From an uncultured Deinococcales bacterium (GTDB lineage Bacteria > Deinococcota > Deinococci > Deinococcales > JAAFIG01): a stretch of 20,021 nucleotides of DNA. This document shows positions 13-20,020 of this stretch, piece by piece (position 1 is the first letter of the stretch; every line of letters begins with the position of its first letter). The stretch covers positions 1 through 20,021 of the forward strand of contig CAXTTL010000072.1 of assembly GCA_964247135.1 (NCBI GenBank), in the 5' to 3' direction. A program made the position numbers and the translations under genes. The notes beneath the pieces are model-generated. The model saw only the letters and a list, made by a program, of their open reading frames with translations. It was not told the DNA's origin and ran no database searches.

Positions 13-158
13 GAGCGTGTTTATGAAGTCCATTTTGAAAAAATTCTCAAGGGTTTGATGTAAAAATGGCTTTAAGCTCTAAGCTCCAAGGAACAGCGTT
101 TTTCGCTTGCAGCTTAAAGCTTGTAGCCCTGCTCGAGAAACCCTTTATAAACACGCTC
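13..158. mobile_element. Non-autonomous miniature inverted-repeat element (MITE), IS5-family-like ends (IS1031-group style)
   Basis: Perfect 12-bp terminal inverted repeats GAGCGTGTTTAT (13-24) and ATAAACACGCTC (147-158), extending inward with one mismatch. TTA lies on both flanks (10-12, 159-161), giving a 3-bp target duplication. No transposase ORF inside. Confidence 0.75.
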
Positions 159-228
159 TTAGATACTGGGTCGGGTGATTATCAAAAACTGGCTCGAGAA
201 TTGCGGATTCTTGCGGAGTTACGCCAAA

Positions 229-255
229 CAAAAAAGTGCGCCCCAAAGGCGCACT
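229..255 (-). terminator. Rho-independent terminator of the BON-LysM gene
   Basis: 8-bp stem AGTGCGCC (235-242)/GGCGCACT (248-255) with a 5-nt loop, followed on the minus strand by a T run (A run at 230-235), 17 nt past the stop at 273. Confidence 0.8.
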
Positions 256-272
256 GTTCGAGCTTATTAATT

Positions 273-980
273 TTAGCGCGGAATTTGAATCTTCTGACCA
301 ATTTTGATCAGGTTCACATCGTGAATGCCATTGGCTTTGGCAAGGGTATCAATGTCGCTCGAGTATTTGGTGGCAATGGCGGACAGCGTATCGCCACGTT
401 GTACCACGTACCATTCGTCTGGAATGTTAACGTAACCTGGGGCAGCCACCTTGGCAGCCTCTTCGGCTTTGGCGGCTTCGTGTTTTTGTTTTGCACCCTC
501 GACAATTTGCAGGTCGTTGGCGTTGACGCCAGTCACGCCCGAAACGGCGCTGGCAATTTGTACCGCCAAGCGGTACTCGTGGTCGGAGTCTACCGCACCG
601 CGCAACACCACTTCGCTGCCAGATTGCAACACGTCAATTGGGTTGTTGGAAAGCTCGCCGTTGCTGCTGATGTCGTGATACACCGATTTGGCGATGGCGC
701 TGGCGTCGATGGCGGCTTGAACTTGGGTTTCGTCAACGGGTGGCACGGTTTCTGGTTCGTTTTGTTCGACGCCGACCATTCCAGTGTCAACATTTTTAAC
801 GCCATTGATGCCTGAGGCAATCGAAGTCAACAGTTTGATCACCGCTGGGTTTGAAACAACACCCTGAAACTTGACAGTTCCTTGAGATTCGTCAACCGTA
901 ATGGGTTGTGAGAGAATATCGGGATACTTCTTCATTTCTTCTTCAACGCGTTGCTTGATGCTTTTCCCAAATGGCCACAT
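273..980 (-). CDS. Tandem BON-domain plus C-terminal LysM protein (Kbp/YgaU-like), 235 aa
   Basis: Two BON-like segments (ITVDESQGTVKFQGVV...GINGVKNV; IDVLQSGSEVVLRGAV...VSGVTGV) and a LysM motif (YVVQRGDTLSAIA...NGIHDVNLIKIGQKIQIP). Start moved to ATG 980 (MWPFGK) because GGAGG lies just upstream. Confidence 0.88.
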   Translation of the reverse strand: MWPFGKSIKQRVEEEMKKYPDILSQPITVDESQGTVKFQGVVSNPAVIKLLTSIASGINGVKNVDTGMVGVEQNEPETVPPVDETQVQAAIDASAIAKSVYHDISSNGELSNNPIDVLQSGSEVVLRGAVDSDHEYRLAVQIASAVSGVTGVNANDLQIVEGAKQKHEAAKAEEAAKVAAPGYVNIPDEWYVVQRGDTLSAIATKYSSDIDTLAKANGIHDVNLIKIGQKIQIPR

Positions 981-1208
981 AAAGTACCTCCAAATAATTT
1001 TTTGCTGCCCGCCAAGTCTACTCGAATCAAATGACAATTGTCGAAAATGAATCCTTGATTAAGGACGAATTTAAGAAACCTGGACGTGAAGAAAATATCA
1101 CAGGTTTGTAATGTTTTCATCAACTGAAGGTGAGCGATTGGGAACGAACCATATGCTGTTCGCAACTTGGGGCAGCACACTTCTCGAGAAATATTCATAG
1201 ACTCGAGC

Positions 1209-3620
1209 TTAATTTGCAGTTTCAAAAGCCAGATTATTCGCCAAGCCACGCAACAAAGCGCTGGCGGCTTCGGTGGTCAAGCTCGAGCCAGGTTTGACGC
1301 TGAGCAAGGCAATGGCGTTAGCACTGACATCTCGAGCGTCAAGGGCAACAACGGGGAGCTGAATTTGGGTTGGGTTGGATTTTTGGCTGGCGGTGGCTTC
1401 AAGGCTAAAGTTAATCTCGTAGCCAAGGCGGTCCAGAGGATTGGTCAAACCTGAAACGCCGATTGGATCGGTGCAGTTGGCAAATTTCACTGCCAGGCTG
1501 CATTCTTCACGCGCAACCTCGAGTGCCATCTCGAGCAGGCTGCCAGAATTTTTGGCGGTCCTCAATTGCACCAAGACGCTGGCGTTCGGCTCGCTAAAGC
1601 TGGAAATCTCGAGGGTGTCGCCAACCGTCGCAAGGACACGGTAGCCGCTCGAGAATCGGATTTTGAGCGCCTTGTTGAAGTTGGCGCTCGCCCAGTCTGT
1701 CGGGATGGGTTTGGCGGGTTTTGCCGCCACCATTTCGGGTCGGACTCCAAAGGCGCTGCTGTCGTCGGTTAAGCCGTACAGGCTAAACGTGCCGCCAGCC
1801 CCCAAGGTTCCCGCGCCGACCAGCAACCGCGTGCCGTCTGGACTGAACGCCAACGCCGAGGTCGAATCGGTGTGGTTGGTCAGGCTGTAAAGAATTTTTC
1901 CAGTGCTCGAGTCCAGTAAACGCAGCGTGCCGTCCGTGGCGGACACCGCAACGCTTTTCCCATCTGGAGAATAGCGAACCGAGAGCGGCGAGGCGCTGGC
2001 AAGTTGGGTTTTCCAGAGGGTTTTACCACTGATTTGCATGGCTTGAATCGCGCCGTCGTTTGAACCGACAATCATGGTTTGAGCATCAAACGAAAGGTCC
2101 AACGCGCGAATGCCTGCCTCGAGACGCTCGAGGTTGGTTTTGACTTGCCCAGAGCTGGCAATCAGGGTTTTGATCGTACCGTCACTTCCATAAATCAGCA
2201 CATGATTGCCATCGGGCGTCCAGGTCAGACCTGCCAGGTTTTCGTCTTGCAAACTTTCAAACGTGGCAAGGCTTTTAAACGCGAGGGCATCAAAGACATT
2301 GATTTTACCGTTCGAGCCTGAAAAAGCGAATTTCTTGCCGTCGGGGCTGTACGCCAGTCCGGCTATCGGTTCGTCGTTGTTGTTGAAATCGTTTTTTAGG
2401 CTGCCCGTCGTTAAATCCCAGAGTTTGACATGTCCAAAATCGTCACCAGAAAGCAGACTCTTGCCGTTGGGCGCAAAAGCGATGTTGGTTTGCCAGGCTG
2501 GAAAGTCCGATTTCAGGGTTTGTGAGAGCGTGTTGTCCGCCGCCTTCCAAATCAAAATATCGGTTTCATTGGCGATGGTGGCGTAGATGGTTCCGTCGTT
2601 TGAATACACCGCACTTTTTAACCTCGAGGGCGTGCCCGAAAATGCAAAGTTTTGTTTTTTGTTTGCAGCATCCCAACCCCTGACCAGACCGTCCACCCCT
2701 CCAGAGGCGATGGTTTTGGAATCGAGCCAGATCACGCTGTTGATACCGTCGGCGTGCTTGCCGATTAAGGCAAAAGCATTGTTGTGATCCAAATCGATCA
2801 GACGAATCACATAGTCGGATGCGGCGATGGCAATGCGCTTTCCGGCGCTGTCCCAAGCGAACGAAAAAATCTGACGGTCGTCTTTGGAGGTGATAACTTT
2901 TGCGGTCCATTTTGGCGCAGTCCACAAGCGCACCGAGTTGTCGCCCACGGTGGCAAGGCTGGCAGAATTGGGGCTGAAGCCAAGTTGACGGATGGTGCTC
3001 TGCCCACTTTTTAAGGCTTTGATCGGTTCGCCGTTTACATTCCAGATGCGCAGACCGCCCTCATCATCGCCGCTGGCGAGCATTTTGCCGTTGGGGGAGT
3101 AGGCTAGGGCTTCGACGATTTCGTTGTGACCCTTTAAGGTTCGCAGCAATTTGCCAGATTCGGTGTCAAACACCCGCACCAGTTTGTCATCGCCGCCGAC
3201 GGCAAAACTTTTGCCGTCTGGACTGAAGGTCGCAATGTTTAAGTCAATGCTGCCCACCGCAATGGTGCGCACCACCTGACCCGTGCCAACCTGCCAGATT
3301 TTGGCGGTGTTGTCGTAGCTCGAGGTCAGCAGGTATTTGCCGTCACCGCGCCAGGACACGCTCGAGACAAAACCACGGTGTCCGATCAGGCTGTAAAGAA
3401 GTTTGCCACTTTGGACATCAATGACATGGACGTAACTCGAGGTGGCAAAGGCAATTTGCTTGCCGTCAGGACTTTTCACCAGTTGCGTCACCGTGCCACG
3501 GTGCGCACTGAGCGTGGCTTTGAGCGTGAAGTTGGCAAAATCGAGCGCCAAGACATGACTGGTCAAGAGGCTGAGCACGAAACTCGAGACGACGCCCAAA
3601 AACAATAATTTATTTTTCAC
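1209..3620 (-). CDS. Secreted WD40-repeat protein (about 14 repeats) with an uncharacterised C-terminal domain
   Basis: Signal peptide (MKNKLLFLGVVSSFVLSLLTSHVLA), repeated GH...SPDG...D.TVRIWD units and a Pro/Ala linker before a C-terminal domain of about 160 aa. GTG start with TAGTCT 7 nt upstream. Confidence 0.9.
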   Translation of the reverse strand: MKNKLLFLGVVSSFVLSLLTSHVLALDFANFTLKATLSAHRGTVTQLVKSPDGKQIAFATSSYVHVIDVQSGKLLYSLIGHRGFVSSVSWRGDGKYLLTSSYDNTAKIWQVGTGQVVRTIAVGSIDLNIATFSPDGKSFAVGGDDKLVRVFDTESGKLLRTLKGHNEIVEALAYSPNGKMLASGDDEGGLRIWNVNGEPIKALKSGQSTIRQLGFSPNSASLATVGDNSVRLWTAPKWTAKVITSKDDRQIFSFAWDSAGKRIAIAASDYVIRLIDLDHNNAFALIGKHADGINSVIWLDSKTIASGGVDGLVRGWDAANKKQNFAFSGTPSRLKSAVYSNDGTIYATIANETDILIWKAADNTLSQTLKSDFPAWQTNIAFAPNGKSLLSGDDFGHVKLWDLTTGSLKNDFNNNDEPIAGLAYSPDGKKFAFSGSNGKINVFDALAFKSLATFESLQDENLAGLTWTPDGNHVLIYGSDGTIKTLIASSGQVKTNLERLEAGIRALDLSFDAQTMIVGSNDGAIQAMQISGKTLWKTQLASASPLSVRYSPDGKSVAVSATDGTLRLLDSSTGKILYSLTNHTDSTSALAFSPDGTRLLVGAGTLGAGGTFSLYGLTDDSSAFGVRPEMVAAKPAKPIPTDWASANFNKALKIRFSSGYRVLATVGDTLEISSFSEPNASVLVQLRTAKNSGSLLEMALEVAREECSLAVKFANCTDPIGVSGLTNPLDRLGYEINFSLEATASQKSNPTQIQLPVVALDARDVSANAIALLSVKPGSSLTTEAASALLRGLANNLAFETAN

Positions 3621-3679
3621 GCCATTCAGACTACCGCACTATTTTGAAAGTCTTCTGGGTTAGCCAAAAACCATGTTGT

Positions 3680-4255
3680 TCACGAACCGTTTTGCACGGA
3701 GGCTCGAGGGCTGATGGCTTGATTGAGGTTGAGGTGGTTGAAAAGATAATGCGCCAAAATGGCGGGTTCGACGCTGCCAGAACCCAGTGTTACCAGTGCC
3801 ATCAGTACGCCGACCAGCGCCGTCCAGAGCGGATAAGCCCAGGCTTTGGCGGGGGCTGGATGAAAAGCCGCAAAAACGGCTGCCTGAGCCAGCACCGCCA
3901 GCCAGACGGGCAAAAATTTGACGCCCAATGCCAGCAAGAATCCGCGAAAGAACAATTCCTCGCCCAAGGAACTGGTCAGCGCCAAAAAAAACGCCCACAA
4001 GCCGTTCAAACCCAAACCCTGCATGATCCCCTCGAGCATCCCGCCGGCGAAGCTAAAACTTGGGATAAAACGCTCAAAAAAAGCCGACAAAAAAGCTATC
4101 GAAAAAAAAGCGGTCAGGGCGGCAAAACCCAGTATCTCGGGCGGCAGGTCGGTAAAGTCAACGCCCAACCACAGGCTGCCAAAAAAACCGATCAAGCCCA
4201 GAATCAAACCTGGCATGGCAAGCAGCAATTTGATGTTGACCCGTTTGAATCGCAC
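3680..4255 (-). CDS. CPBP (Abi/CAAX type II) intramembrane glutamic/metallo-endopeptidase
   Basis: Multi-TM protein with motifs GEELFFRG, FAAFH and AHYLFN. Start placed at GTG 4255, 7 nt downstream of TATACT (the ORF track starts at TTG 4276). Confidence 0.88.
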   Translation of the reverse strand: MRFKRVNIKLLLAMPGLILGLIGFFGSLWLGVDFTDLPPEILGFAALTAFFSIAFLSAFFERFIPSFSFAGGMLEGIMQGLGLNGLWAFFLALTSSLGEELFFRGFLLALGVKFLPVWLAVLAQAAVFAAFHPAPAKAWAYPLWTALVGVLMALVTLGSGSVEPAILAHYLFNHLNLNQAISPRASVQNGS

Positions 4256-4306
4256 GCGATTGAGTATACGGGTCAAGCAAGAATCTCGAGCGACCAGAAT
4301 GACAAT

Positions 4307-9145: not shown

Positions 9146-10267
9146 ATGCAAGCCATTTTGGAGCACCTGACCGCCAGCACCTCGAGCATCCTGAATGACA
9201 TTGAAACCCTGGTAAAGCTCGAGTCGCCATCGACCGACGCCGCCCGCATCAACTTGGTTCAGGACACGCTGCAAGCTTGGCTGAAGCCATTTGGTGAAAT
9301 CACGCGAACAAAACACGAACTGGGCGACATCTTGCAGTGCCGCATTCCTGGAAGCTCGAGTAACAGGGTCGTTTTGCTGGCTCATGCCGACACGGTGTAC
9401 AGCGTCGGCGCCTGGAAAACTGGCTTGTGGCGTATCGAGGGCGATCAAGCTTACGGACCTGGCGGTTACGACATGAAAGCCGGCATCGTCCAAGCCATCT
9501 GGGCGATCAAAACGCTCAAAACCCTCAACCTCGAGCCTTCTTGCACCATCGATTTTCTGATTACCCCCGACGAAGAGATTGCCTCTTACGCGGGTCGTCC
9601 ACACATTGAAGCGCTGGCGCAGGGCGCGAGTGCCGTGCTGGTGCTCGAGCCGCCGCATTTGAACGGCGATTTGAAGGTGGCTCGCAAGGGCGTGGGCATG
9701 TACACCATTCACGTTTTTGGCAAAGCCGCCCACCAGGGCACAGAACCCGAAAATGGACGCAACGCCATCGTCAGCGCCGCGCACTTTATCACCGAGGTCG
9801 TGAAGTTACAGAACCTCGAGCTTGGCACGACGCTGGGACCGAACGTGATTCACGGCGGCAGCGCGACCAACGTGGTCGCCGATGAGGTCAAACTCGAGGT
9901 GGACATTCGGGTTTGGAGCATGGTGGAAGCCGAACGAATCGAGCGCGAAATCCGTTTGATCCAACCGCTCGAGGGAACCCGTTACGAAATCACGGACGGC
10001 TTGAATCGCCCACCGATGGAACCCACGCCTGGGTCAATGGCGATCCTCGAGAAAGCCCAAAAGATTGCGAACGAGATTGGTTTCAACCCTGGCGCGGCGC
10101 GGGTTGGTGGCGGCAGCGACGGCAATTTCACGGCGACCATCGCGCCGACGCTGGACGGTTTTGGCGCGTTTGGCAAGAACGCGCATCAAAAAGACCTCGA
10201 GTTTATTACGATCTCCGAACTTGCGCCGCGCACGGCATTGCTGGCAGGGTTGTTGCTCGAGCTTTAA
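9146..10267 (+). CDS. M20 family metallopeptidase (glutamate carboxypeptidase G2-like)
   Basis: LESPS, HADTV, GPGGYDMKAG, DEEI, VLEP, GKAAH, GGGSDGNF and a C-terminal H...E. Confidence 0.92.
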   Translation: MQAILEHLTASTSSILNDIETLVKLESPSTDAARINLVQDTLQAWLKPFGEITRTKHELGDILQCRIPGSSSNRVVLLAHADTVYSVGAWKTGLWRIEGDQAYGPGGYDMKAGIVQAIWAIKTLKTLNLEPSCTIDFLITPDEEIASYAGRPHIEALAQGASAVLVLEPPHLNGDLKVARKGVGMYTIHVFGKAAHQGTEPENGRNAIVSAAHFITEVVKLQNLELGTTLGPNVIHGGSATNVVADEVKLEVDIRVWSMVEAERIEREIRLIQPLEGTRYEITDGLNRPPMEPTPGSMAILEKAQKIANEIGFNPGAARVGGGSDGNFTATIAPTLDGFGAFGKNAHQKDLEFITISELAPRTALLAGLLLEL

Positions 10268-10370
10268 AAGCCTGCATAGATTGGTATTGCTCGAGCCGTT
10301 GCGACGCAGGGTTTTGTTGGTGCGTCCAATCTCGAGTATTCGTTGTTATTTTTTTGATTTTAAACTGTGC

Positions 10371-10404
10371 AAAACCTCCAAGGGTAATTTCCCTTGGAGG
10401 TTTT
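10371..10404. terminator. Bidirectional rho-independent terminator
   Basis: Perfect inverted repeat AAAACCTCCAAGGG-taattt-CCCTTGGAGGTTTT between the convergent genes ending at 10267 and 10419. Confidence 0.88.
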
Positions 10405-10418
10405 ATTGCGACCACTGT

Positions 10419-12494
10419 TTAGTATTTTGGTATGCCACGCCCAATCACATTAGAATCGGTGACAATCCAAGGAATGCCGTCTGCATCTGCGCCGATTCGG
10501 CTGGCTCCGACATTGCCACTGAGTCCAACCCATCCATTAAAAGCCAAGGTGTAGACCACGTCGTCTGTACCGATCACAAAAACCACGCCGTTGGCAGCGA
10601 TGGCAATGTCTTTGGCTGCACCTTGGATCACTTGTTTAACCCCACCAATGTACTTGGCAATCTGACCTGTTTTACCAACAGTCCAAGGGTTGCCTTGAGG
10701 GTCTACGGCAACTTGAGCCGCGTCTGAACCAAAGCTGTCGCTCCAGCCAGAACCAGTCCATTTGTACAAGGTGTTGGATAAGCCCACATGGTAGACACTG
10801 CCATCTGCGCCAATGCCAATGTCAAGGGCTTGCCCAGGTACTTGCTGCCAGGCGTTGTTGACCCGGCGGAACATGCTTCCGCCGCCACCAATCACCCAGG
10901 GGTTGCCTTGGGGGTCCACGGCAACTCGGGTGATCTCGCTCGATTCAATTCGTAGCCAAGTTGAACCTGTCCAGTTGTAAACGGCTTTGTCCATGCCAAC
11001 CACCCAAACCGAACCGTTTGCGCCGATGGCAACATCGGTGGCGGCTCCTGGCATGACTTCAAACGCCATTGAAATCGGGGTCATGGCTGGGAATTTTGCC
11101 AGTTTGACCAATTTTTTGGTGCTGACGGTGGCGTCAAGGTTGGCTCGGTCTTTTTCGTTGCCTTTGCCAGCGATTTTGCTGGTCTGGTTAAGGCTGTAAT
11201 TGATGGCTAAATCATAGCCCGCATTTGGATTGATGTCGCAGTGGTCATCGGCGTTGTCGGGTAGGTCTTGATCCCAAAGTTCGTACTTGATACTCGAGCT
11301 TGTTTTGTTGTCATCCACAAAGGCAATGGTTGTCCAGTCGGGCGTGATCGGATTCTGGTTTTGGTAAACACTTTCGGTGTACGTGCGTCCGTCCACGGTT
11401 ATTTTGGCGTAAAAATCGGCGGTGCCACCTGGATCAATTTTTTGTTCAAAAGTGCCAACTTTGTCTTCACTGACCGAATTGGTTTTGACCACCACGGCTT
11501 GTTTATGCAGATCAATGCTGGGGATTTGCGGTACTGCCGCCGTCACCTTGTCGGTTTTGTCGAGGTCAAAGGTCAGCTCGAGATACCATAATTTGGGAGC
11601 CTTGAACGCCAGTGTTGCGCTGGATTCCGGACTCGAGATAAAGGCGGCTGTGGCAATCGCAAAATCTGGTAGGTATTTGCTGTTCGGTCCTTTCCAGTGC
11701 CCCAACCATGTGCTCAGGTCGTACATCAGGGCAATTTGGACTGCTGTTCGCCCCAGATCGGTTGGGTCAAAGGTTGGTTGGCGAACTTGATTCCAGATGT
11801 TTGGGTTGACTTCTGTCACCCAGCCCTGAATTGCGTTGATCCATTCTCTCGAGCCGGCATAGGCGGTCGAATAGGCGTTCATCCAGTTTGGGCGACCATA
11901 AAAGTCGTGGTTCATGCCGACGCCCGTTGTTCCGTGATCGGTTGCCTGTTCTGGTGAACTGTTCGGGTACTTGCCGCTTCGCAAACGATTTTCGGTTGGG
12001 CTGATTGGCGTATTAAAATAGGTGCTGGTTTGTAAACCATCGACGCTGCCAAGTAAATCTGCCCAGTTGGAATGGGTGTAAAAATCTTGAACCGCGTGCA
12101 ACGAATAGCCTGTTAGCGCCATGATTTTACGCCAGTCACCATCTCGAGCCGCTTTTTGCACGGCGGTTTTGGTGTTGATGGTCAAACGATTCCAGTAGGT
12201 GCGTACCAAATCGGTGGTCAGTAAATTATCAAAATGCAGTTTATCGAGTTCTTTGCCAGCCCCGACCAGCGGTTGACTCGTGTAATAATCGACCAACAGA
12301 TTGTCGTTGGCAATGATTGTGGCGCTGAGTGGACTGAGTCCCTGATGCGTTGCGGCGTCAATGCTGAGGTCATTGTGATGCCCAGCGTCAAATGCCAAGG
12401 CGCTTGTCGTGATTTGCAGACTCGAGAAAAGCACCGTCAGCAGCAAGAATTTTTTGAGGGCTTGGGGTAGCCTAACACTTCGGGGTTGATTCAT
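10419..12494 (-). CDS. Secreted multidomain protein: HET-C/VWA7-like (Zn phospholipase C/P1 nuclease fold) domain, C2-like domain and tectonin beta-propeller
   Basis: Signal peptide ALA|F; FDAGHH, HFDN, GYSLHAVQDFYTHSNW and MNHD; DFYAKITVDG...YELWDQD...DDHCDINP; six DVAIGANGSVW/VAVDPQGNPW repeats; AGGAG RBS. Confidence 0.8.
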   Translation of the reverse strand: MNQPRSVRLPQALKKFLLLTVLFSSLQITTSALAFDAGHHNDLSIDAATHQGLSPLSATIIANDNLLVDYYTSQPLVGAGKELDKLHFDNLLTTDLVRTYWNRLTINTKTAVQKAARDGDWRKIMALTGYSLHAVQDFYTHSNWADLLGSVDGLQTSTYFNTPISPTENRLRSGKYPNSSPEQATDHGTTGVGMNHDFYGRPNWMNAYSTAYAGSREWINAIQGWVTEVNPNIWNQVRQPTFDPTDLGRTAVQIALMYDLSTWLGHWKGPNSKYLPDFAIATAAFISSPESSATLAFKAPKLWYLELTFDLDKTDKVTAAVPQIPSIDLHKQAVVVKTNSVSEDKVGTFEQKIDPGGTADFYAKITVDGRTYTESVYQNQNPITPDWTTIAFVDDNKTSSSIKYELWDQDLPDNADDHCDINPNAGYDLAINYSLNQTSKIAGKGNEKDRANLDATVSTKKLVKLAKFPAMTPISMAFEVMPGAATDVAIGANGSVWVVGMDKAVYNWTGSTWLRIESSEITRVAVDPQGNPWVIGGGGSMFRRVNNAWQQVPGQALDIGIGADGSVYHVGLSNTLYKWTGSGWSDSFGSDAAQVAVDPQGNPWTVGKTGQIAKYIGGVKQVIQGAAKDIAIAANGVVFVIGTDDVVYTLAFNGWVGLSGNVGASRIGADADGIPWIVTDSNVIGRGIPKY

Positions 12495-12600
12495 GATAAA
12501 GCTCCTTTGGTCTGTGAAAATACTGTGATTTACGACGTGAGCAGCGTACTTTTATAAACTTTGTTTAAGACCCTCCTTTTTGTGGCTCGAGACACAAACT

Positions 12601-13215
12601 TTAAACAAGATGGCTGGCGAGACGAAACGCCATGAACCACAACAAAACACCGCTGCAAAGGTCAATGGCACGCAAAACCCGAGCTTGCTTTAACACTGGC
12701 GCGAGCAGCGCCGAACCGTAGGTCAGACCCAAAAACCACAGCATTGAGGCGGCAATCGCACCGAGCGCGAACCACGGGCGTTGATCGCTCTGGTAATGGT
12801 TGGCTCCACCACCGATCAGCAGCATTGTATCGATGTAAACGCTGGGGTTGAGCAGGCTGACCGTCAACAACGCCGTCACGATCTGCCTGCGGGTCGGCAG
12901 AATCACAACCTCGGTTGCCTCGAGTGCGGGCGCGAGTGCCACCCAAAACGAGCAGGCTCCGTAATACATCAACGCCGCAACTCCGGCGCAGGTCATCAGT
13001 TTGGACAGCCACTCGCCCTGCATCACAGCCCCGACACCGAACGTGCCCAGACCGATCAGCACGGCGTCGAGCAACGTGCAGAGCAGCACGATCAACAGCA
13101 GGTGCTGGCGGCGCAAGCCTTGGCGCAGGATCAGGGTGTTTTGTGGTCCGATCCCGACGATCAAACCGGCGCTGAGGAGAAAGCCTTCGATCAGTGGGAG
13201 GTTGGCAGTGTTCAC
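12601..13215 (-). CDS. LysE/ArgO family amino-acid exporter
   Basis: LIVGIGPQN..ILRQGL, D..LI..G, LLNPSVYIDT..LIG, F..GA..AS..WF. GTG start with AGGAG RBS. Confidence 0.92.
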   Translation of the reverse strand: MNTANLPLIEGFLLSAGLIVGIGPQNTLILRQGLRRQHLLLIVLLCTLLDAVLIGLGTFGVGAVMQGEWLSKLMTCAGVAALMYYGACSFWVALAPALEATEVVILPTRRQIVTALLTVSLLNPSVYIDTMLLIGGGANHYQSDQRPWFALGAIAASMLWFLGLTYGSALLAPVLKQARVLRAIDLCSGVLLWFMAFRLASHLV

Positions 13216-13270
13216 GGTGGTGCTCCTGTCATGCTTGAGGAGATGCGTGTGTTTGATCTGATATGCACAG

Positions 13271-13318
13271 AGCTTATGAAAGTGGGCGTCAACGGAGCGT
13301 CAACGGGGCATCAACAGA
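13271..13318 (-). promoter_or_regulatory. Three 11-bp direct repeats (AfsR/SARP-type operator) and a putative -10 TAAGCT for the lysE-family gene
   Basis: GCGTCAACGGA (13286-96), GCGTCAACGGG (13297-307) and GCATCAACAGA (13308-18). On the minus strand the array ends 9 nt before TAAGCT (13276-13271). Confidence 0.7.
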
Positions 13319-13415
13319 TATTCGATTTCGTATCCGAAGTCTTGTGTACCTGTGCCAACGCAGTGCTGCTGAGGCTCGAGAATGGCAGAACGTAAAGATT
13401 TTTGACGCAGCGCCA

Positions 13416-13421
13416 TATAAT
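13416..13421 (+). promoter_or_regulatory. -10 element of a probable leaderless promoter
   Basis: Consensus TATAAT 6 nt upstream of ATG 13428, with no Shine-Dalgarno sequence. Confidence 0.7.
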
Positions 13422-13427
13422 GAACGC

Positions 13428-16295
13428 ATGGTGATGCACCTCAACGTTCTTGGTGGGCTGTCACTCGAGCCACCGTCTTTTCAGCGACCCAAACCGTTGC
13501 TGTTGCTGGCGTACTTGGCGCTCGAGGGCAGACGAGAAAAACGTCACGTGCAGGAAATGTTCTGGTTTAATGCCGCGAATCCGGCGGGCAGCTTGCGCAC
13601 AGCCATAAACCAACTTCGCCAAGTTTCGAGCGATCTGATCCTGTCAAACGAGCACACCATCTGGACGGCGGTGGAAAGCGACCTGACGGCGTTGCAATCC
13701 GCAATCTCGGAACGGGATGCGAACCGCCTGCTGACCTTGTACAAGGGCGAGTTCTTGTTCGGTTTCACGTTGCCGGACTGGGGCGCAGAACTCGAGGAGT
13801 GGGTGTATGGCACCCGAGAATTTCTGGACGCCAAGGTGCGTGGGGCTTTGATTCGGGCGGCACAAACCGAGGCGGGCAAGGGCAAGTTCGATCTCGCGGC
13901 TCAATGGGCACAGAAGTCGTTTGCCATCAAACGTCAGGAGCAAACACCAGAAGACCTCGAGCAACTGTACCCTCTGCTGGTCGCTGGTGACAGTGCGTTG
14001 CAAGATGAGTTGAAAAATCAGGCGAAAGAATTCGGCATCGAGTTGAACTTGTCTCGAGAGGCGGCGCGGCAGCGTTATGTCACAACGCTTGAGGGCGGTG
14101 CGGCGGCGCGAATTATTGCGCACAATTTGCCGCGCAGCAAGACCTCGTTCATTGGGCGCGATCCCGAACTGGTCGAATTGGGGTTGATGATCGCTCAACC
14201 CGAAGTGCAACTGTTGACACTCTTGGGTCCTGGCGGCATCGGCAAAACACGCTTGTCCTTGCAATTGGCGGCGGGGCAACTCGAGGAGGGAAATTTCCCT
14301 GACGGCGTGTACTTTGTGGCGCTCGAGTCGCTGACCGAACCCGCGCAAATTCCGTTGGTGTTGGCGCAAACCTTGCAGGTCAAACCCACCGATGATCCTT
14401 TTGCCGACGTCAAAACTGCCATTGGCAACAAGCACATGCTGCTGGTGCTCGACAACTTTGAGCATCTGGTGGAGGCTGCGCTGCTCGTCTCCGAGCTGCT
14501 CGAGGTCTGCCCGAATTTGACCCTGGTGGTCACCTCCCGAGAACGCCTGAACCTCGAGGAAGAGCACGTGCTGCCATTGCAGGGTTTGCCATTTTCGAGC
14601 GGCTCGAGTTTTGCCGAATCAAAATACGTGGATGCAATAGAATTGTTCGTGCAACGCGCCAAACGCGCCCGCTTGGATTTTCAACTCACCCCAGAGAACC
14701 TGGGGTTCGTGCTCGAGGTTTGCAAATTGGTCGAGGGTTCACCGCTGGGGATCGAACTGGCATCCGCGTGGTTGCGGTCGTTGTCCCTGCCAGATTTGGT
14801 GCGTGAAATCACCATCAACCAAGACGTGCTCGAGACTTCATCGCGCAACATTCCTGGCAGGCATCAAAGCTTGCGGGTTGTGTTTGAACACTCCTGGAAT
14901 CTGTTGAAGCCCAGAGAGCAACTGCTTCTGGCGAGGCTTTCTGTCTTTCGCGGCGGCTTCACCCGCGAGGCAGCCTCGAGCGTGGCGGATGCGAACTTGG
15001 GTCTACTCGCGGCGCTGGTCAACAAATCGGTTTTGCGGCTGCCAGAGACTGAACATGGCGGCGAAGCGCGTTACGACTTTCACCCGTTGCTACTCGAGTA
15101 CGCCAAAGAAAAATTTGCTGGCTTTAGCCAAGCATCAGACATCCAAACCAAACACGCACATTATTTTATGGCACTGCTCGTAGCATCAAGTCAGAACGGC
15201 TTGAAGGCTCAGATTCGAGGCTGCAAACAAGAGTACGAAAACCTGCTGGAAGCCCTGGCTTGGTCGCAAGACAACAATCACGGGATGTTCGGCTTGCGCC
15301 TGGGCATCATGCTCGGCACCCTCTGGCAATCTCAGGGTTACAACAGTGAAGGCATCCACTGGCTCAGAACCGTGCTGTCCCATCCCGAGGCGGCAAGCGC
15401 CAGCGCCGAACGATTTCAGGCGCTGCTGCTGATTTCACGCATCGCCATGATTCACTCTGAGCACTTGGCGCTCGGCACCGCTTACGGACGAGAGGCACTG
15501 GCGCTGGCTCAGACCCTCGAGATCGACGAGTACATTGTTCAAGCCCACTTGGGTTTGAGCCTGGCAGCCCAAAAACAAAGCGACTGGACTGCCGTAGAAC
15601 ATTACGGTGAGGCGGGACTGGCGTTGGCACGCAACATCAACCATTCGGGACTGACCGCCAATGCCCTGTGGATTGTCGGTGGCGCCCTGGCGTTCATCAA
15701 GGGCGATTACGTCAAAAGCCGCAGCTACCTCGAGGAAAGCCTGAGCCTCAACCGCAAACTGGGCTTGCGCCTCGAGATCGGAGCTTCGCTCGGCAATTTG
15801 GGCTTTCTGGTGTTTTTGCTCGGCGACCTGCAAGCCGCCAAAGCCTATCTCGAGGAGGCGCTGCTGATCGCCAAAGACCTTCCCGACCTGTACATGGCGA
15901 GTACGGCTCAGGACAGCCTCAGTGCCGTGATGCAAGACCTTGGCGACCTCGAGTCGGCACGCCTTCTGGCAGAGCAGGCACTGAGATACAGTTGGCAGGT
16001 CAAGAACACAATGAACATTCGCAACGCCTTCGAGAACCTGGCAAACCTTGCGGCATTGCAGGGACAAGCCAAACGCGCCAGCCAACTGTGGGGCGCCGCC
16101 GAACGCTGCCATATTGCGGACACCTCACGCATCAGTCTGCTTTGGCATGATCGCAACGAACGGTTCATGGCGATAGCAAAAGCGCAGCTCGACGAAACCA
16201 GTTTTCACAGCGCCTGGCAAGCGGGCGCACAGATGAAACTCGAGGAGGCTGTCAGTTACGCGCTCGAGGCAAGCTTACAGCCAACGCACCGATAA
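13428..16295 (+). CDS. AfsR/SARP-like transcriptional regulator: N-terminal wHTH/BTAD-like region, STAND (NB-ARC-like) ATPase and TPR repeats
   Basis: LNVLGG...KPLLLLAYLAL...SLRTAINQLR; LYKGEFL.G...EEW; HNLP...SFIGR; Walker A GPGGIGKT; Walker B LLVLDNFEH; TSRE; GSPLGIEL; C-terminal A..YLEEAL TPR helices. Start moved from 13263 to 13428. Confidence 0.9.
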   Translation: MVMHLNVLGGLSLEPPSFQRPKPLLLLAYLALEGRREKRHVQEMFWFNAANPAGSLRTAINQLRQVSSDLILSNEHTIWTAVESDLTALQSAISERDANRLLTLYKGEFLFGFTLPDWGAELEEWVYGTREFLDAKVRGALIRAAQTEAGKGKFDLAAQWAQKSFAIKRQEQTPEDLEQLYPLLVAGDSALQDELKNQAKEFGIELNLSREAARQRYVTTLEGGAAARIIAHNLPRSKTSFIGRDPELVELGLMIAQPEVQLLTLLGPGGIGKTRLSLQLAAGQLEEGNFPDGVYFVALESLTEPAQIPLVLAQTLQVKPTDDPFADVKTAIGNKHMLLVLDNFEHLVEAALLVSELLEVCPNLTLVVTSRERLNLEEEHVLPLQGLPFSSGSSFAESKYVDAIELFVQRAKRARLDFQLTPENLGFVLEVCKLVEGSPLGIELASAWLRSLSLPDLVREITINQDVLETSSRNIPGRHQSLRVVFEHSWNLLKPREQLLLARLSVFRGGFTREAASSVADANLGLLAALVNKSVLRLPETEHGGEARYDFHPLLLEYAKEKFAGFSQASDIQTKHAHYFMALLVASSQNGLKAQIRGCKQEYENLLEALAWSQDNNHGMFGLRLGIMLGTLWQSQGYNSEGIHWLRTVLSHPEAASASAERFQALLLISRIAMIHSEHLALGTAYGREALALAQTLEIDEYIVQAHLGLSLAAQKQSDWTAVEHYGEAGLALARNINHSGLTANALWIVGGALAFIKGDYVKSRSYLEESLSLNRKLGLRLEIGASLGNLGFLVFLLGDLQAAKAYLEEALLIAKDLPDLYMASTAQDSLSAVMQDLGDLESARLLAEQALRYSWQVKNTMNIRNAFENLANLAALQGQAKRASQLWGAAERCHIADTSRISLLWHDRNERFMAIAKAQLDETSFHSAWQAGAQMKLEEAVSYALEASLQPTHR

Positions 16296-16380
16296 AAAAA
16301 TCACCGCCTCGCAGATGCCAGACAAAACAACACCGTCTCGAGCAAACCTGATGCCCAGCCAAAAATGTTAACCTGACAAA

Positions 16381-18024
16381 ATGCTTGCCACCGACCTCTC
16401 GAGCCTTTTTCGCAATTCTCGAGACACCACCGTCATGCTCGACGGGAATGTGAACCCTGCCGAACTGGCGCGTCATGCGGTTGGGCTTGCCAACGCCAAG
16501 GGCGGCACGATGGTCGTCGGTGTGACCCGCGACGGGGCGCTCGAGGGTGCGCCCGACTTGCACCCCCTGCAACTGACGCACGCCCTGTACGAGCTGACCA
16601 GCGGCAAACTGACCGTCAATTGCACCTCGGCGACTTTGGATGGCAAATCCTTATTGGTGGTCAATGTGCCAAGGTCGCAGATGGTGCTGGCAACCCCGCA
16701 GGGCGAGGTGCTGCACTGGAACGGCGCGAGCCTCGAGCCTCTGGGCGCAAGCACCAGCGACCCAATGCCCGACCCCGATTTCACGGCGACCGTACCGCCG
16801 ATGGGCAGCCTCTCCGACATCGACCCGCTCGAGGTGCATCGCCTGCGCGGGGTGCTCGAGTCGCGGCGCGGCGCGGGACTGGCGGAACTGCCCGATTTGG
16901 ATTTGTTGCAGGCGCTCGGGTTATTGGAGGGCGAACAACCCAACATTGCCGGGATTTTGCTGGCTGGAACGCCACGCGCCTTAAAACGCTACGTGCCGCA
17001 AACCGAACTCGATTATTACAACCATGCCACCAACGACCTCGAGTTTGAATTCCGCGAAACCCTGTTAAAGCCGCTTCCAGCACTGCTGGAGCGCTTGCGG
17101 GAATTGATTCAGGCTCGGAATCAGTACAAAACCTTGAACGTTGGCTTGTTTCAAATTGAAATCTGGGATTACGACGAGGTGGTTTACCGCGAAGCGATTT
17201 TGAACGCCCTGGTGCACCGCGATTACACCAGCCGCGACACGATTCAAATTCATCACCATCCGAACAAACTCGAGATTTCAAACCCTGGGTCGTTTGCTGG
17301 CGGCGTCAATGCGCAAAACATTTTGCGGCACGCCCCGAAACGTCGCAATCCCGTGCTTGCCGATGCGCTGGCACGAATGGGCTTTATCGAGCGGGCGGGC
17401 ATCGGCGTGGACCGAATGTACCGATTGTTGCTACGTCACGGCAAGGAGATTCCCGAGTACACCTCCTACCCCGACAGCGTGGTCTTGCGGCTGCACAACC
17501 CCGAATTCGACGAGGCGTTCACAAGGTTTATCGCCCGCAAGCAAGAGGAAATGGGCGCGTTGAACCTCGATGCCCTGATCGTGCTGGCATACTTGAAACG
17601 CGAACTCGAGGGCGACAGGGCATCGCTTTCCAAAGCCTTGCAACTGCCCGAAGATCAGGTGGCTCGAGCGCTCAAACCGCTCGAAACCAGCGATCTGGTT
17701 ATCCGTCACGGTGAGGCTTGGGTGCTGTCCAATGCCGCGCTGAATGCGATTGGCAAACCCATTCCCATGCCATCACGACCCCGACTCGAGCCTGGCAAAG
17801 CGGAAGTTAAATTCAGTTTCGGTGAAACCCGAGCGCTGGTCAAACAACGCGTGATCGAACTGGTCGAGAACCTCGGCAGCGTCGCCAACCGCGACGTTCG
17901 CGCCCTCTTGGGCATCAACCTCTCGCAAGCCAGCCACCTGCTGCGCGTCATGACCAAAGACGGCTTGCTCGAACGCACCGGCGACACGCCCCGCGCCATG
18001 CGTTACCAGCTCGGAATGAAATGA
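16381..18024 (+). CDS. AlbA_2 (Schlafen-like) + HATPase_c_4 + C-terminal HTH protein
   Basis: ANAKGGTMVVGV (AlbA_2 core); REAILNALVHRDY, ISNPG, RNPVLA and IERAGIGVDRM (HATPase_c_4); C-terminal winged helices (NRDVRALLGI...G..R.MRY). Confidence 0.88.
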   Translation: MLATDLSSLFRNSRDTTVMLDGNVNPAELARHAVGLANAKGGTMVVGVTRDGALEGAPDLHPLQLTHALYELTSGKLTVNCTSATLDGKSLLVVNVPRSQMVLATPQGEVLHWNGASLEPLGASTSDPMPDPDFTATVPPMGSLSDIDPLEVHRLRGVLESRRGAGLAELPDLDLLQALGLLEGEQPNIAGILLAGTPRALKRYVPQTELDYYNHATNDLEFEFRETLLKPLPALLERLRELIQARNQYKTLNVGLFQIEIWDYDEVVYREAILNALVHRDYTSRDTIQIHHHPNKLEISNPGSFAGGVNAQNILRHAPKRRNPVLADALARMGFIERAGIGVDRMYRLLLRHGKEIPEYTSYPDSVVLRLHNPEFDEAFTRFIARKQEEMGALNLDALIVLAYLKRELEGDRASLSKALQLPEDQVARALKPLETSDLVIRHGEAWVLSNAALNAIGKPIPMPSRPRLEPGKAEVKFSFGETRALVKQRVIELVENLGSVANRDVRALLGINLSQASHLLRVMTKDGLLERTGDTPRAMRYQLGMK

Positions 18025-18653
18025 GGCACGCGGCAATCCTGGTGGGTGGGCAGCTCGAGATCACAGCCACGGTACGAAAACGCGCTCGAGAAACCAACCT
18101 GGTGATTGCCGCCGACGGTGGCGCACGCCACGCCAAAACCTTAAACCTCAAACTCGATTTGTGGGTGGGCGATTTTGACTCGAGCGAAGGACTGGCATTT
18201 CCTGGCGTGCCGCGCCTCGAGTTTAATCCCGACAAGGACAGCACCGATTTTGAACTCGCCATTCAAGCCGCCAAAGACGCCGGCGCGACCCGAGCCACGG
18301 TTTTTGGTGCATTCGGGGGACGGTTTGACCACACCCTGGCGATTGCCTTATCTGCCGCCAAGAACGCGCTCGAGGGATTTGAGATTGTGCTCGAGAGCGG
18401 CTTTGAAACGGGTTGGATTCTAACACCGCATCAAAAACTCGAGCTTAACTTGCACCAAAACCAGACCTTCAGCCTGCTGGCGCTCTCCCCCACTGTCACA
18501 GGTCTAAACATCACTGGCGCAAAATGGAACCTCGAGAATGCAACGCTCGGGTTTGGAACCGGTTTTGGGATTTCAAATTTAGCGTTTGGAACTGTCAATT
18601 TGAAGCTCGAGACTGGGTTGGCGTTGGTGATTGCACAGCATAATGTCGCGTAG
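18021..18653 (+). CDS. thiN: Thiamine pyrophosphokinase (thiamine diphosphokinase)
   Basis: IAADGGA, VGDFDS, KDSTDFELA, GAFGGRFDH, G.KW.L and GISN. ATGA overlap with the upstream gene. Confidence 0.93.
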   Translation: MRHAAILVGGQLEITATVRKRARETNLVIAADGGARHAKTLNLKLDLWVGDFDSSEGLAFPGVPRLEFNPDKDSTDFELAIQAAKDAGATRATVFGAFGGRFDHTLAIALSAAKNALEGFEIVLESGFETGWILTPHQKLELNLHQNQTFSLLALSPTVTGLNITGAKWNLENATLGFGTGFGISNLAFGTVNLKLETGLALVIAQHNVA

Positions 18654-18783
18654 GGTGCGCTTCTTGACCATAAAATGCACCTGTCTTGATCCCAAAACGC
18701 ACCTGACGGGCGGGATCGCTGACGGGCATGGTCGCCTCGCGCACCAAGAACTTGTGTACAACGGTGCGCGAGGCGCACCCTAC
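18650..18783. repeat. GTAG-family REP/REPIN-like palindromic cluster
   Basis: Outer inverted repeat GTAGGGTGCGC (18650-60)/GCGCACCCTAC (18773-83). A full REP-like unit GTAG-GGTGCGC-CTC-GCGCACC lies on the minus strand (18783-18763), with a 13-bp inverted partial copy at 18733-45. Confidence 0.78.
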
Positions 18784-18815
18784 AGTTTACGATCAGGTTT
18801 TTGAACGATTTTCAA

Positions 18816-19946
18816 TCAAATCGGCAAGACCTTGAAATCAAAAATTCGTTCCGCCATCCAAATTCCGGCAATGGCAGCAACGGCAAGCGAACCGATGGCA
18901 AGCGTAAAACGGTTGTAAAAGCTCGAGCCTCGCAAACTGAAGGCGAGCGGTAAGAACAGCATCACGATGCTGAGCTGCCCGAGTTCGACGCCGACGTTGA
19001 AGCCGACCAGCGACCGCAGCAGGGTGGCTCGAGTGAGTTCGAGGTCGGTGAGCACGCTGGCAAACCCAAAGCCGTGAATCAATCCAAATCCGAAGGCGAC
19101 CAGCCAACGGCGGCGTTCTTGAACGACTGGAAAGACATTGTTGAGCGCGGCGAGCACCACGGAGGCGGCAATCGTGCTCTCAACCAGTCTCGAGGGCAAG
19201 CTGATGACTTGGAACGCCGCGAGTGAAAGGGTGATCGAGTGCGCGAGGGTGAAGGCGGTCACGATTTTCAGGACGCTCGAGAGTGCGTTTTTGAAATTTC
19301 CGACGGGCATCCAGAGTCCGTTTTCGCGGCGCAACACGCTGGGCAACAAGAGTGCGAGCAAAAACAATATGTGGTCGATGCCGCCCCAAATGTGCAGCAC
19401 ACCCTCACGTACAAACTCGAGGAACTGCGAAACAGGATTTTGCGCATGAAGTTGAACGCTGAGGTTATGGTTTTCGGGGCTGAAAATCGCGGTTTGTGTG
19501 CCATTTATTGTCTCGAGGTTGAGTAAGCCCCGATGTTGCGGGTCGAGGTCAAACAGCAAATTGTAATTGACTTTGAGGCTGCTTGGGTTGCTCGAGCAAT
19601 CGCTGGAAAACGGCATGACCACGTAAGCGCCGTCGGTGTGGTCGTCCACCAAATAACCGCTCGAGCTGAGTTTGCAGGTTTGGTTTTCGCTGCGAACCTC
19701 GAGTTTTGAGAGCAAATAACTTTCCACCGCAACACGGTGCGTTTTCAATTCGCCCCAGGTGATCGCGCCATCGTCGTTATCGTCAAGCCCAATCGCATAA
19801 TCCAGGTCGCGCAGCGCCACATCCCAGCGTCCAGTCAGACTGGCGTTTTTCAGGTTGATGTTGAGGTACGAATCGCTCGGTTTGTGCGCCAAGGCAAGGC
19901 TCGAGCAGAACAAAATTGAGAAAAGGAACATCAAGGCACGTTTCAT
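18816..19946 (-). CDS. HupE/UreJ family membrane protein with an N-terminal extracytoplasmic domain
   Basis: Signal ALA|HKPSDSY, D.NDDG.ITWGE, G..HIWGGIDHILFL, TAFTLAHSITL, VE..IAASV, FGLIHGFGFA and FNVGVELGQ. Confidence 0.92.
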   Translation of the reverse strand: MKRALMFLFSILFCSSLALAHKPSDSYLNINLKNASLTGRWDVALRDLDYAIGLDDNDDGAITWGELKTHRVAVESYLLSKLEVRSENQTCKLSSSGYLVDDHTDGAYVVMPFSSDCSSNPSSLKVNYNLLFDLDPQHRGLLNLETINGTQTAIFSPENHNLSVQLHAQNPVSQFLEFVREGVLHIWGGIDHILFLLALLLPSVLRRENGLWMPVGNFKNALSSVLKIVTAFTLAHSITLSLAAFQVISLPSRLVESTIAASVVLAALNNVFPVVQERRRWLVAFGFGLIHGFGFASVLTDLELTRATLLRSLVGFNVGVELGQLSIVMLFLPLAFSLRGSSFYNRFTLAIGSLAVAAIAGIWMAERIFDFKVLPI

Positions 19947-20020
19947 TTCAAACCCTCTTTCACCTGGACCACAAGTTTGGCGATTCGGACATCCTCGAGC
20001 TTGGTCGCATTAAACCACTC
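19943..20020 (-). CDS. 3' end of an upstream gene (partial), possibly the TPR-type partner often found before HupE/UreJ genes
   Basis: Open frame EWFNATKLEDVRIAKLVVQVKEGLK* whose TGA overlaps the HupE/UreJ ATG (ATGA). Product guessed only from the W...T.LED tail and context. Confidence 0.6.
   Translation of the reverse strand, partial: EWFNATKLEDVRIAKLVVQVKEGLK

Follow-up and report, generated by a model that had tools for sequence, protein, structure and literature searches.

To our knowledge, HIP1, the highly iterated palindrome (HIP) of cyanobacteria, has defied explanation for three decades, with work on it confined to a single phylum. Other short words that are spread over whole genomes are the uptake signal sequences (USS) of Pasteurellaceae and the DNA uptake sequences (DUS) of Neisseriaceae, which are non-palindromic and for which an uptake bias has been shown experimentally. 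Restriction targets, on the other hand, are usually avoided. The HIPs of cyanobacteria are treated in Elhai 2015 (PMC4390886) and Xu et al. 2018 (PMC5861425), the accessible parts of which deal with cyanobacteria only; a table in the former gives densities of 300-2,700 copies per Mb for HIP1, and the available sections of the latter ascribe a kilobase-scale (10-90 kb) chromosomal periodicity to the HIP class. For the word CTCGAG, an orphan methyltransferase exists in Nocardia, where the motif clusters at the replication origin according to the accessible text of Blow et al. 2016 (PMC4752239). Here we describe the distribution of CTCGAG in a window of 20,021 nucleotides (contig CAXTTL010000072.1 of GenBank assembly GCA_964247135.1) from an uncultured Deinococcales bacterium, and in the genome to which this window belongs. 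CTCGAG is a real, strong and lineage-wide iterated palindrome of the HIP kind outside the cyanobacteria: it is the top over-represented hexamer, it occurs in coding and non-coding DNA, it has spread by substitution and it is conserved above control oligomers. A sequence-only reading of the window had proposed a HIP1-like palindrome in a non-cyanobacterial lineage related to Deinococcus, and all the tests by which it offered to be refuted came out in its support.

The window is contig C72 of an assembly of 5,091,702 bases in 386 contigs (median 9.3 kb, maximum 116 kb) with 52.7% GC, 84% completeness and 1.8% contamination. It contains exactly 137 copies of CTCGAG (6.8 per kb), which is the number that had been estimated by hand; they extend from position 132-137 to position 19994-19999. 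None of 100 dinucleotide-preserving shuffles of the window reached this number (mean 4.05, sd 2.09, maximum 11), and the observed count is about 34 times that of the shuffles and about 24 times that expected from base composition. Genome-wide, there are 33,925 copies (6.7 per kb, approximately one per 150 bases), which makes CTCGAG the commonest hexamer of the genome, both by count and by its ratio of observed to expected copies (O/E) of 24.8 against base composition, close to the excess of about 25-fold claimed for the window. The second palindromic hexamer, TTTAAA, has a genome-wide O/E of 3.7. The excess is not confined to one contig, since CTCGAG is found on 386 of 386 contigs at 2.56-11.28 copies per kb (median 6.81).

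Under an order-4 Markov model, the genomic O/E of CTCGAG does not exceed 1.24, since the signal is already contained in the pentamers; the low value identifies the hexamer as the unit and does not make the excess trivial. Its one-mismatch neighbors are ordinary (O/E 0.08-1.74). The flanks show a weak, symmetric preference (AnG...CnT), which is also seen at non-coding sites: about 39% of the sites have G at -1 and C at +1, and about 37% have A at -3 and T at +3. No single flanking base exceeds a frequency of 0.39 when all sites are taken, or of 0.42 at the non-coding ones. No conserved shared flanks as in repetitive extragenic palindromes (REP) or miniature inverted-repeat transposable elements (MITE) were found, either around all sites or around the non-coding ones. 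Since the flanks are unrelated and the neighboring words ordinary, CTCGAG is not part of a longer repeat.

All frame assignments are based on our own codon-usage gene calls, which comprise 4,045 genes and 80% coding DNA for the genome. In the window, 81 sites fall into the frame CTC/GAG, 14 into xCT/CGA/Gxx and 32 into xxC/TCG/AGx, and ten are intergenic. Of the intergenic examples named before, 1183, 10331, 12586 and 16337 are indeed intergenic, but 13375 lies inside an open reading frame (ORF) at 13263-16295, a placement that depends on the start codon chosen. Over the whole genome, called genes carry 6.6 copies per kb and the remaining DNA 6.9, and the densest DNA is found in 1,720 short intergenic gaps with 9.5 copies per kb and an O/E of 48 at only 46% GC.

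Codon usage does not account for these numbers. A synonymous shuffle within genes, which keeps the protein and the codon usage of each gene, reduces the three frames to 2,970, 260 and 554 sites, compared to 16,923, 3,906 and 6,119 observed ones, i.e. an excess of 5.7-fold, 15-fold and 11-fold, respectively. Shuffling the codon order leaves 1,586 of 26,948 coding sites, so that the observed number is 17 times higher, and the codon pair CTC-GAG occurs 15.9 times as often as the product of its codon frequencies predicts. Against a codon-pair Markov expectation, the sites in the two off-frames are still 1.8-fold in excess; this value is small because under the codon-pair null five of the six bases are given from the start, and for the CTC/GAG frame, in which codon pair and site coincide, the test has no content. 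The sequence-only reading had stated that copies occur in all three frames and that codon bias alone is insufficient, and both statements hold: the excess is limited neither to the Leu-Glu frame nor to coding DNA, it outlasts the shuffles and, in the two off-frames, the codon-pair Markov expectation, and it is strongest between genes. The suspected influence on protein sequence is likewise evident, as Leu-Glu is the most over-used dipeptide (2.35-fold) and is spelled CTCGAG in 16,923 of 21,863 cases (77%), and Ser-Ser is over-used 1.62-fold. The maintenance of CTCGAG was thus shown to override codon choice and, in many places, the amino acid sequence.

The retention of the word was analyzed in an alignment of about 27 kb with five genomes of the same genus (83-87% nucleotide identity, nearly star-like tree); the following counts pool these related genomes and are not independent. 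CTCGAG is intact in the partner genome in 75-82% of the cases, compared to 39-42% for other hexamers. Before GAG, CTC retains its third base in 472 of 523 cases, but elsewhere in only 313 of 493, and GAG retains its third base in 484 of 528 cases after CTC versus 269 of 436 elsewhere, so within the genus synonymous third positions are conserved to 90-92% inside the sites and to 62-64% outside. Intergenic bases behave similarly, with 367 of 379 identical inside sites and 5,873 of 7,175 outside. For gains and losses we used column-majority ancestors, since ancestral hexamers defined by a majority of five out of six genomes turned out to be too restrictive (11 one-off positions, one gain). On terminal branches, the loss of CTCGAG (0.133; 118 of 888) is lower than that of other hexamers (0.279), the commonest loss being C-to-T at CpG. 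One-off words were converted to CTCGAG in 10 of 186 branch-opportunities (0.054), a small sample, compared to 0.012 for a generic specific single-base change, and these ten gains arose from four different one-off words at three positions of the site. The retention of all six bases together with the continuing creation of sites shows that a force on the DNA word itself maintains CTCGAG. In orthologous columns, one genome has CTCGAG where another has a substituted word, which shows that point substitution, rather than insertion, propagates the word.

A single gene, that of AlaRS, may serve as an illustration. It carries 21 sites in this genome and 18 in a congener, of which 15 are shared, and 23, 21 and 20 sites in three genomes of two other genera, of which 11, 7 and 7 are shared. 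The five family genomes together have 50 distinct site positions, of which five are common to all. At many of these positions, the family has Leu-Glu or Ser-Ser where CTCGAG-poor relatives differ (for instance Leu-Ala, Val-Arg, Ile-Ala or Arg-Lys at Leu-Glu positions). As follows from retention and creation, the positions turn over between genera, but on this longer scale gains and losses are in balance, with 5-7 copies per kb across a wide range of GC contents.

The excess is present in all 19 genomes of this uncultured Deinococcales family. In the other 18 of them, which belong to five genera, the 8-base form of the word occurs 838-4,448 times and its reverse 0-165 times, and the six family genomes within a sample of 251 Deinococcota contain 23,235-33,925 copies of CTCGAG (5.2-6.7 per kb). 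At the family loci sampled, which range in GC from 0.43 to 0.62, the density is 4.9-8.5 per kb and does not follow GC. Outside the family, the largest genus of the neighboring family (92 genomes, to judge from their size Deinococcus-like) has 26-1,010 copies per genome, and a genus with genomes of 2 Mb (30 genomes, by the same token probably Thermus-like) has CTCGAG and the reversed word in about equal numbers. In three genera of 2.4-5.4 Mb, CTCGAG reaches 1.4-3.5 copies per kb and the reverse 0.1-0.9, and one family with many genera is variable (0.3-2.6 per kb). Among single genomes, G253 reaches 7.0 and G196 3.6 per kb. The divergent congener G197 of G253 has only 0.3 per kb, but since the two share just 67-74% nucleotide identity, no rapid switch of density is implied. 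In relatives with a high GC content, codon usage may account for some of the excess. The comparison with relatives, which had been named as a check, therefore shows an excess that is family-wide and reaches some other Deinococcota, and the large Deinococcus-like and Thermus-like genera are without it. Among viral contigs with clustered sites, the densest 25 of at least 80 loci have a GC content of 0.55-0.71, many of them with equal numbers of GAGCTC, and none resembles the family. Among the open-access papers listed by our literature searches, which deal with cloning, absent words, giant viruses and methylomes, none was seen to describe an excess of CTCGAG over a whole genome; subscription journals lie outside this scope.

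The spacing of the sites is near-exponential (mean 148, median 108) with a deficit below about 15 bp, and within contigs of 9.3 kb median length no short-range periodicity was detected except for the coding period of 3 bp. Windows of 5 kb are over-dispersed in their CTCGAG count (sd 7.9 vs 5.8 for Poisson). The density peaks at 11-12 per kb in the 40 bp after stop codons, amounts to 8.5-9.4 per kb in the 40 bp before starts and dips to 4.7 per kb in the first 20 bp of genes. Neighboring sites 9-24 bp apart make up 13.2% of the intergenic but 6.8% of the coding ones. In 173 of 597 (29%) of these close intergenic pairs the stem extends outward by at least 2 bp, compared to 105 of 1,616 (6%) coding pairs, and a T run lies beside 235 of 597 (39%) of the intergenic pairs. 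The extended stems and T runs indicate that part of the close intergenic pairs form terminator-like hairpins, each arm of which contains CTCGAG. Predicted tRNA genes contain ten copies in 5,129 bp, where 34 are predicted from genome density, and their 60-bp flanks have 12.3 copies per kb. The word is found in several of the predicted tRNA genes (Glu, Asp, Val, Leu and Thr, for example at C14:11589-11740 and C157:3282-3938), whereby, of the 66 tRNA predictions, two that contain sites look doubtful (95 and 78 nt).

CTCGAG is missing from some DNA of this genome: 26 stretches of at least 1,400 bp are free of sites, compared to 3 expected, and 15 of the 25 listed ones have a GC content of 0.26-0.42. 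The eight stretches that we fetched have sharp borders within site-dense DNA. Pfam matches, to genes of the defense or surface type, were obtained in four of them, namely a fusion of reverse transcriptase and trypsin-like protease, an AAA_21 ATPase with a DUF4276 protein, a Wzy-type ligase and an AAA_16 ATPase; the Pfam scan names nothing in the other four, and five of the ten ORFs scanned have no convincing Pfam family (four none, one a weak sub-threshold match). The islands on contigs C4, C20, C13 and C70 (Table 1), which have sharp edges and a GC content of 0.22-0.39, are probably recently acquired defense genes. A low-GC cassette of the MvaI/BcnI type carries one CTCGAG in 1.56 kb, in contrast to 4.7-7.9 per kb in other restriction-modification cassettes. 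The first 20 kb of contig C1 have no match in the same genus at E<=1e-100 and yet contain 5.8 copies per kb. From these densities it follows that long-resident or clade-exchanged DNA is saturated with CTCGAG, but clearly foreign or recently multiplied DNA is not.

Regarding the force that maintains the word, we tentatively favor the view that CTCGAG might be a 'self' word that is preferred in DNA exchange among relatives, by uptake or by a recombination drive, although we would not be surprised to see it fail. In a competent lineage, alleles with CTCGAG would have an advantage in uptake or recombination, as in the molecular drive of USS and DUS; DNA of long residence would fill up with CTCGAG in this way, and foreign islands of recent arrival would be without it. 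What speaks for this view is the sharing of one word across the clade, the terminator pairs, the footprint in peptides, the absence from foreign islands, the presence of ComEC, which is encoded in 18 of 19 family genomes, and the recent link between HIP1 and transformation efficiency, as stated in the accessible part of PMC13756078.

A number of points weigh against such an exchange-driven self word. ComEC gives weak support, because control genomes without CTCGAG encode it as well, and the uptake step as such is purely something that we infer. A 6-bp word occurs by chance about every 4 kb and therefore discriminates poorly, whereas the known USS and DUS measure 9-12 bp and are found about once per kb. 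The main weakness is the density, because in DNA that already has 6.7 copies per kb, one more should hardly improve the uptake of a fragment. Thermus is competent, but its DNA uptake is reported to show no preference for particular sequences. The near-random, over-dispersed spacing fits drive and weak selection per site equally. Moreover, in 19.6 kb of alignment there are 50 singleton absences compared to 24 singleton presences, and the scored terminal-branch losses (118) outnumber the gains (10), so an equilibrium is not shown at that timescale. Alignment ascertainment or consensus errors of metagenome-assembled genomes may contribute to this surplus of losses, or it may be a real recent decay.

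In a more specific form, a bare six-base palindrome would act as a genome-wide self word without any cognate methyltransferase, being kept by biased uptake, recombination or break repair. We regard this as possible but doubtful, and we are no more confident of its second part, namely that several cultivable-looking relatives use the word in the same way, only more weakly. If it is true, highly iterated palindromes are tied neither to cyanobacteria nor to methylation, and a second, independent and denser system is at hand in which their function can be found.

The preference for a self word has to compete with weak direct selection on each copy, which is a conceivable explanation, albeit a doubtful one. 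An abundant binding protein might recognize the palindrome, or it might be a Chi-type signal for break repair or nuclease control that is read from either side; nucleoid organization, protection or repair of broken DNA, or the marking of self DNA for a defense system are uses that could be imagined with the same reserve. Selection of this kind would agree with the conservation of all six bases at synonymous and intergenic positions, and with a density that is constant over a locus GC of 0.43-0.62 and across genera despite the turnover of sites. The weak symmetric flanks, which also occur in non-coding DNA, are as expected of a dimeric binder. On the other hand, known Chi sites are defined by their orientation, which a palindrome cannot carry. 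No candidate binder was identified, and near-exponential spacing, a period of 3 bp only and over-dispersed 5-kb windows give nothing that suggests a regular structural array. For HIP1, selection was argued on grounds similar to those above in the available sections of Xu et al. 2018 (PMC5861425).

A rather unlikely third explanation is a ratchet of methylation-linked biased repair, as in Elhai's model for HIP1, in which a CTCGAG or TCGA methyltransferase would mark the sites and repair would favor the methylatable word, so that it accumulates neutrally. The repair, which would resolve heteroduplexes or damage, could with the same low probability be of the mismatch or the very-short-patch type. 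CTCGAG is a classic type II site, and a bias of repair at each site would not saturate with density. According to the accessible part of a 2026 preprint (10.64898/2026.06.24.734251), CTCGAG and TCGA are methylated motifs common to one hot-spring host-phage network, the taxon of which is not visible there. The genome is also rich in restriction-modification systems. It encodes pairs of a C5 methyltransferase with an NgoPII-type and with an Eco29kI-type nuclease, an MvaI/BcnI-type pair, a distant SacI-type nuclease with a Dam-family enzyme and a NotI-like pair, as well as a type I system, two MmeI-family enzymes, a methyltransferase-helicase fusion and one orphan-looking N6/N4 methyltransferase. 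The restriction systems are in keeping with an extreme avoidance of palindromes other than CTCGAG (GAGCTC 0 copies, GGCC O/E 0.016).

However, the searches of this genome and its family gave no support to the methyltransferase or XhoI-type mechanism that had been offered as one option. No Vsr was found in this genome (84% complete), and no XhoI-family nuclease was found in this genome nor in any of the six family genomes sampled. Such a nuclease is present in 4 of 251 Deinococcota, so the search as such works. The methyltransferases that flank it in these relatives are one TaqI-like and one N6/N4 enzyme, and neither has a close homolog in the 19 family genomes: the best full-length match has 26% identity, a match of 209 residues reaches 31%, and matches of 43-47% cover short motif stretches only. 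The closed family genome G011 contains no N6/N4, one C5, two Eco57I-type (one of them HsdM) and two D12 matches, and so matches three of the four methyltransferase families searched. The one-off words are not depleted, including the deamination product CTTGAG (O/E 1.17), C-to-T at CpG is the commonest loss, and the gains come from four different one-off words instead of one mismatch type (n = 10), all of which argues against a ratchet. In the HIP class as described by Elhai 2015, a methyltransferase for the word or its core is expected in every genome with the HIP. We found no conserved candidate for a CTCGAG methyltransferase, whereby not all families were searched, the genome is 84% complete and specificity is not readable from sequence.

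Three candidates were considered and rejected. The orphan-looking N6/N4 methyltransferase, which lies beside alaS on contig C36 and is 26% identical to one of the XhoI-linked methyltransferases, has a patchy distribution: it occurs in 23 of 251 genomes, uncorrelated with CTCGAG, is missing from all four genomes of a CTCGAG-rich sister genus and is yet present in CTCGAG-poor genomes. Matches of about 500 aa to Eco57I-type enzymes occur across the family, but five of them that were passed through Pfam proved to be four type I HsdM proteins and one protein without the HsdM N-terminal domain, and with mutual identities of 22-49% the five are not one ortholog. Finally, a D12-class methyltransferase is conserved in two genera, but in this genome its cassette slot holds the NgoPII-type pair. 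What remains are type I, MmeI-type or cassette-swapped restriction-modification genes.

Some observations on the avoided palindromes and their cassettes deserve mention by themselves. GAGCTC, the reverse of the word, has no copy in 5.09 Mb of this genome, and the other sampled members of the family contain 0-24; the distant SacI-type nuclease gene and the Dam-family methyltransferase are located, for example, at C320:1061-2985, and Dam-family matches of similar size exist in several family genomes. Not all of the CTCGAG-rich genomes outside the family avoid GAGCTC. GGCC is nearly eliminated with 380 copies. The slot of the NgoPII-type nuclease and its C5 methyltransferase (C14:36040-37936) is occupied in three genomes of the same genus by an unidentified protein of 372-397 aa together with a D12 methyltransferase, which is a case of cassette swapping at a fixed locus.

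Two further explanations are excluded. That CTCGAG is a by-product of codon, dipeptide or oligonucleotide composition, with CTC and GAG as favored codons and Leu-Glu as a common pair, could appeal to the 63% of coding sites in the CTC/GAG frame and to the Thermus-type high-GC relatives, in which the word is about as frequent as GAGCTC and a mild excess may be a codon effect, but for this genome it is refuted by an excess that outlasts synonymous shuffling in every frame, peaks in intergenic DNA and raises the CTC-GAG pair 15.9-fold above its codon product, by a density that is the same in family members over a locus GC of 0.43-0.62, and by synonymous positions that are conserved inside the sites only. 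The idea that the sites are copies of a mobile mini-element, or an artefact of assembly or synthesis, has in its favor that one small dispersed repeat includes the word, but it is refuted as well, because no flank position exceeds 0.39 (0.42 in non-coding DNA), the sites align with orthologous positions in relatives, the word is found in 19 separately assembled family genomes, five of which were seen with different isolate labels, and foreign islands within the same contigs are without it.

The features of the window and the site-free islands of other contigs are collected in Table 1. The variable island of the window has only weak, partial matches of 64-74% in its interior in the five same-genus genomes and contains 33 copies of CTCGAG (5.4 per kb). 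It encodes a tectonin-domain protein of 691 aa, an ORF of 204 aa and a NACHT/AAA-TPR (STAND-type) protein of 1,010 aa, and it is bordered by a Schlafen/AlbA_2-HATPase_c_4 protein (16381-18024), with which it looks like a defense-type neighborhood. The notion that a site lies within a MITE was correct for one of two repeats: site 132 is part of the small dispersed repeat at about 73-169, whereas the REP/MITE-like repeat at about 18650-18788 has none. The former carries CTCGAG in five of eight genome copies of at least 60 bp and has further copies in same-genus genomes; the latter carries it in 0 of 24 such copies and is present in many copies in each of the five same-genus genomes. The two repeats are unrelated to each other. 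The window also encodes a WD40-repeat protein of 803 aa (1209-3620, minus strand) with two beta-propellers by Pfam, a size that is unusual for a bacterium, and its gene bears CTCGAG sites as its neighbors do.

Table 1. Features of the window (contig C72) and CTCGAG-free islands on other contigs
Feature	Position	Strand	Basis or context
CTCGAG copies, 137	132..19999	.	Motif count, frame assignment
Intergenic CTCGAG sites	132, 193, 1183, 1202, 4285, 10290, 10331, 12586, 16337, 19994		Own gene calls
Intergenic sites 1183 and 1202	1183..1207	.	Between ORFs 273-1037 (-) and 1209-3620 (-)
Intergenic sites 10290 and 10331	10290..10336	.	Between M20 peptidase gene (9146-10267) and tectonin-domain gene (10419-12494)
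Intergenic site	12586..12591	.	Motif count, gene calls
Intergenic site	16337..16342	.	Between NACHT/TPR gene and Schlafen/AlbA_2 gene
Variable island	10268..16356	.	Orthologous matches end at 10267 and resume at 16357 in five same-genus genomes
Small dispersed repeat copy with site 132	73..169	.	Repeat comparison with genome
REP/MITE-like dispersed repeat copy, no CTCGAG	18650..18788	.	Repeat comparison with genome
Low-GC island, CTCGAG-free	C4:51606-53234		Reverse transcriptase fused to trypsin-like protease (Pfam)
Low-GC island, CTCGAG-free	C20:7859-9575		AAA_21/AAA_15 ATPase adjoining DUF4276 protein (Pfam)
Low-GC island, CTCGAG-free	C13:12176-14421		Proteins without Pfam match
Low-GC island, CTCGAG-free	C70:14265-16157		Weak AAA_16 ATPase match

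An independent case with another word, a higher density, a footprint in the proteome and no obvious matching methyltransferase makes comparative tests possible, and a gene family or process that is common to CTCGAG-rich Deinococcota and HIP1-rich cyanobacteria would be the prime suspect. The graded density within one order, from 0.01 to 7 sites per kb and with 0.3 and 7 in divergent members of a single genus, suits phylogenetic profiling of the kind carried out for HIP1 in PMC13756078. If the sites are unmethylated, XhoI would cut these genomes to pieces of about 150 bp. For metagenomes, CTCGAG is a strong signature for binning and host assignment, and motif-driven Leu-Glu and Ser-Ser substitutions in proteins of this clade could be misread as adaptive.

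Among the known systems, those of the XhoI/PaeR7I type and the orphan methyltransferase of Nocardia share the same six-base word and demonstrate, as far as the accessible text of Blow et al. 2016 goes, that CTCGAG methylation exists in nature. However, the motif forms a local cluster at the origin in Nocardia, whereas the excess described here is genome-wide, and unlike the usual restriction targets the word is enriched 25-fold. The nuclease of the XhoI-type systems was not found in six family genomes, nor was a close homolog of their partner methyltransferases in 19. With the USS and DUS, CTCGAG has in common that it is a genome-wide word shared by related species which accumulates by substitution, is enriched after genes with pairs forming terminator hairpins, influences the peptide content, is rare in recently acquired DNA and occurs together with an uptake channel gene. 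In contrast to these words of 9-12 bp at about one per kb, it has 6 bp, is palindromic, has weak flanks and reaches 6.7 per kb. The word is not HIP1 proper, since it is not GCGATCGC and the host belongs to the Deinococcales and not to the cyanobacteria; CGATCG has an O/E of 0.03 in this genome. Nevertheless, as judged from the accessible parts of the HIP1 literature, HIP1 and CTCGAG are alike in being a short palindrome that is the most over-represented oligomer of its genome, that has spread by substitution through non-coding DNA and all frames of coding DNA, that is conserved beyond control words and beyond codon and peptide constraints, and that is lineage-wide with exceptions. CTCGAG differs from HIP1 in its occurrence in Deinococcota, in its length of 6 bp instead of 8 bp, in its density of about 6,700 copies per Mb compared to the 300-2,700 tabulated for HIP1, and in its large effect on the proteome, where Leu-Glu is raised 2.35-fold.

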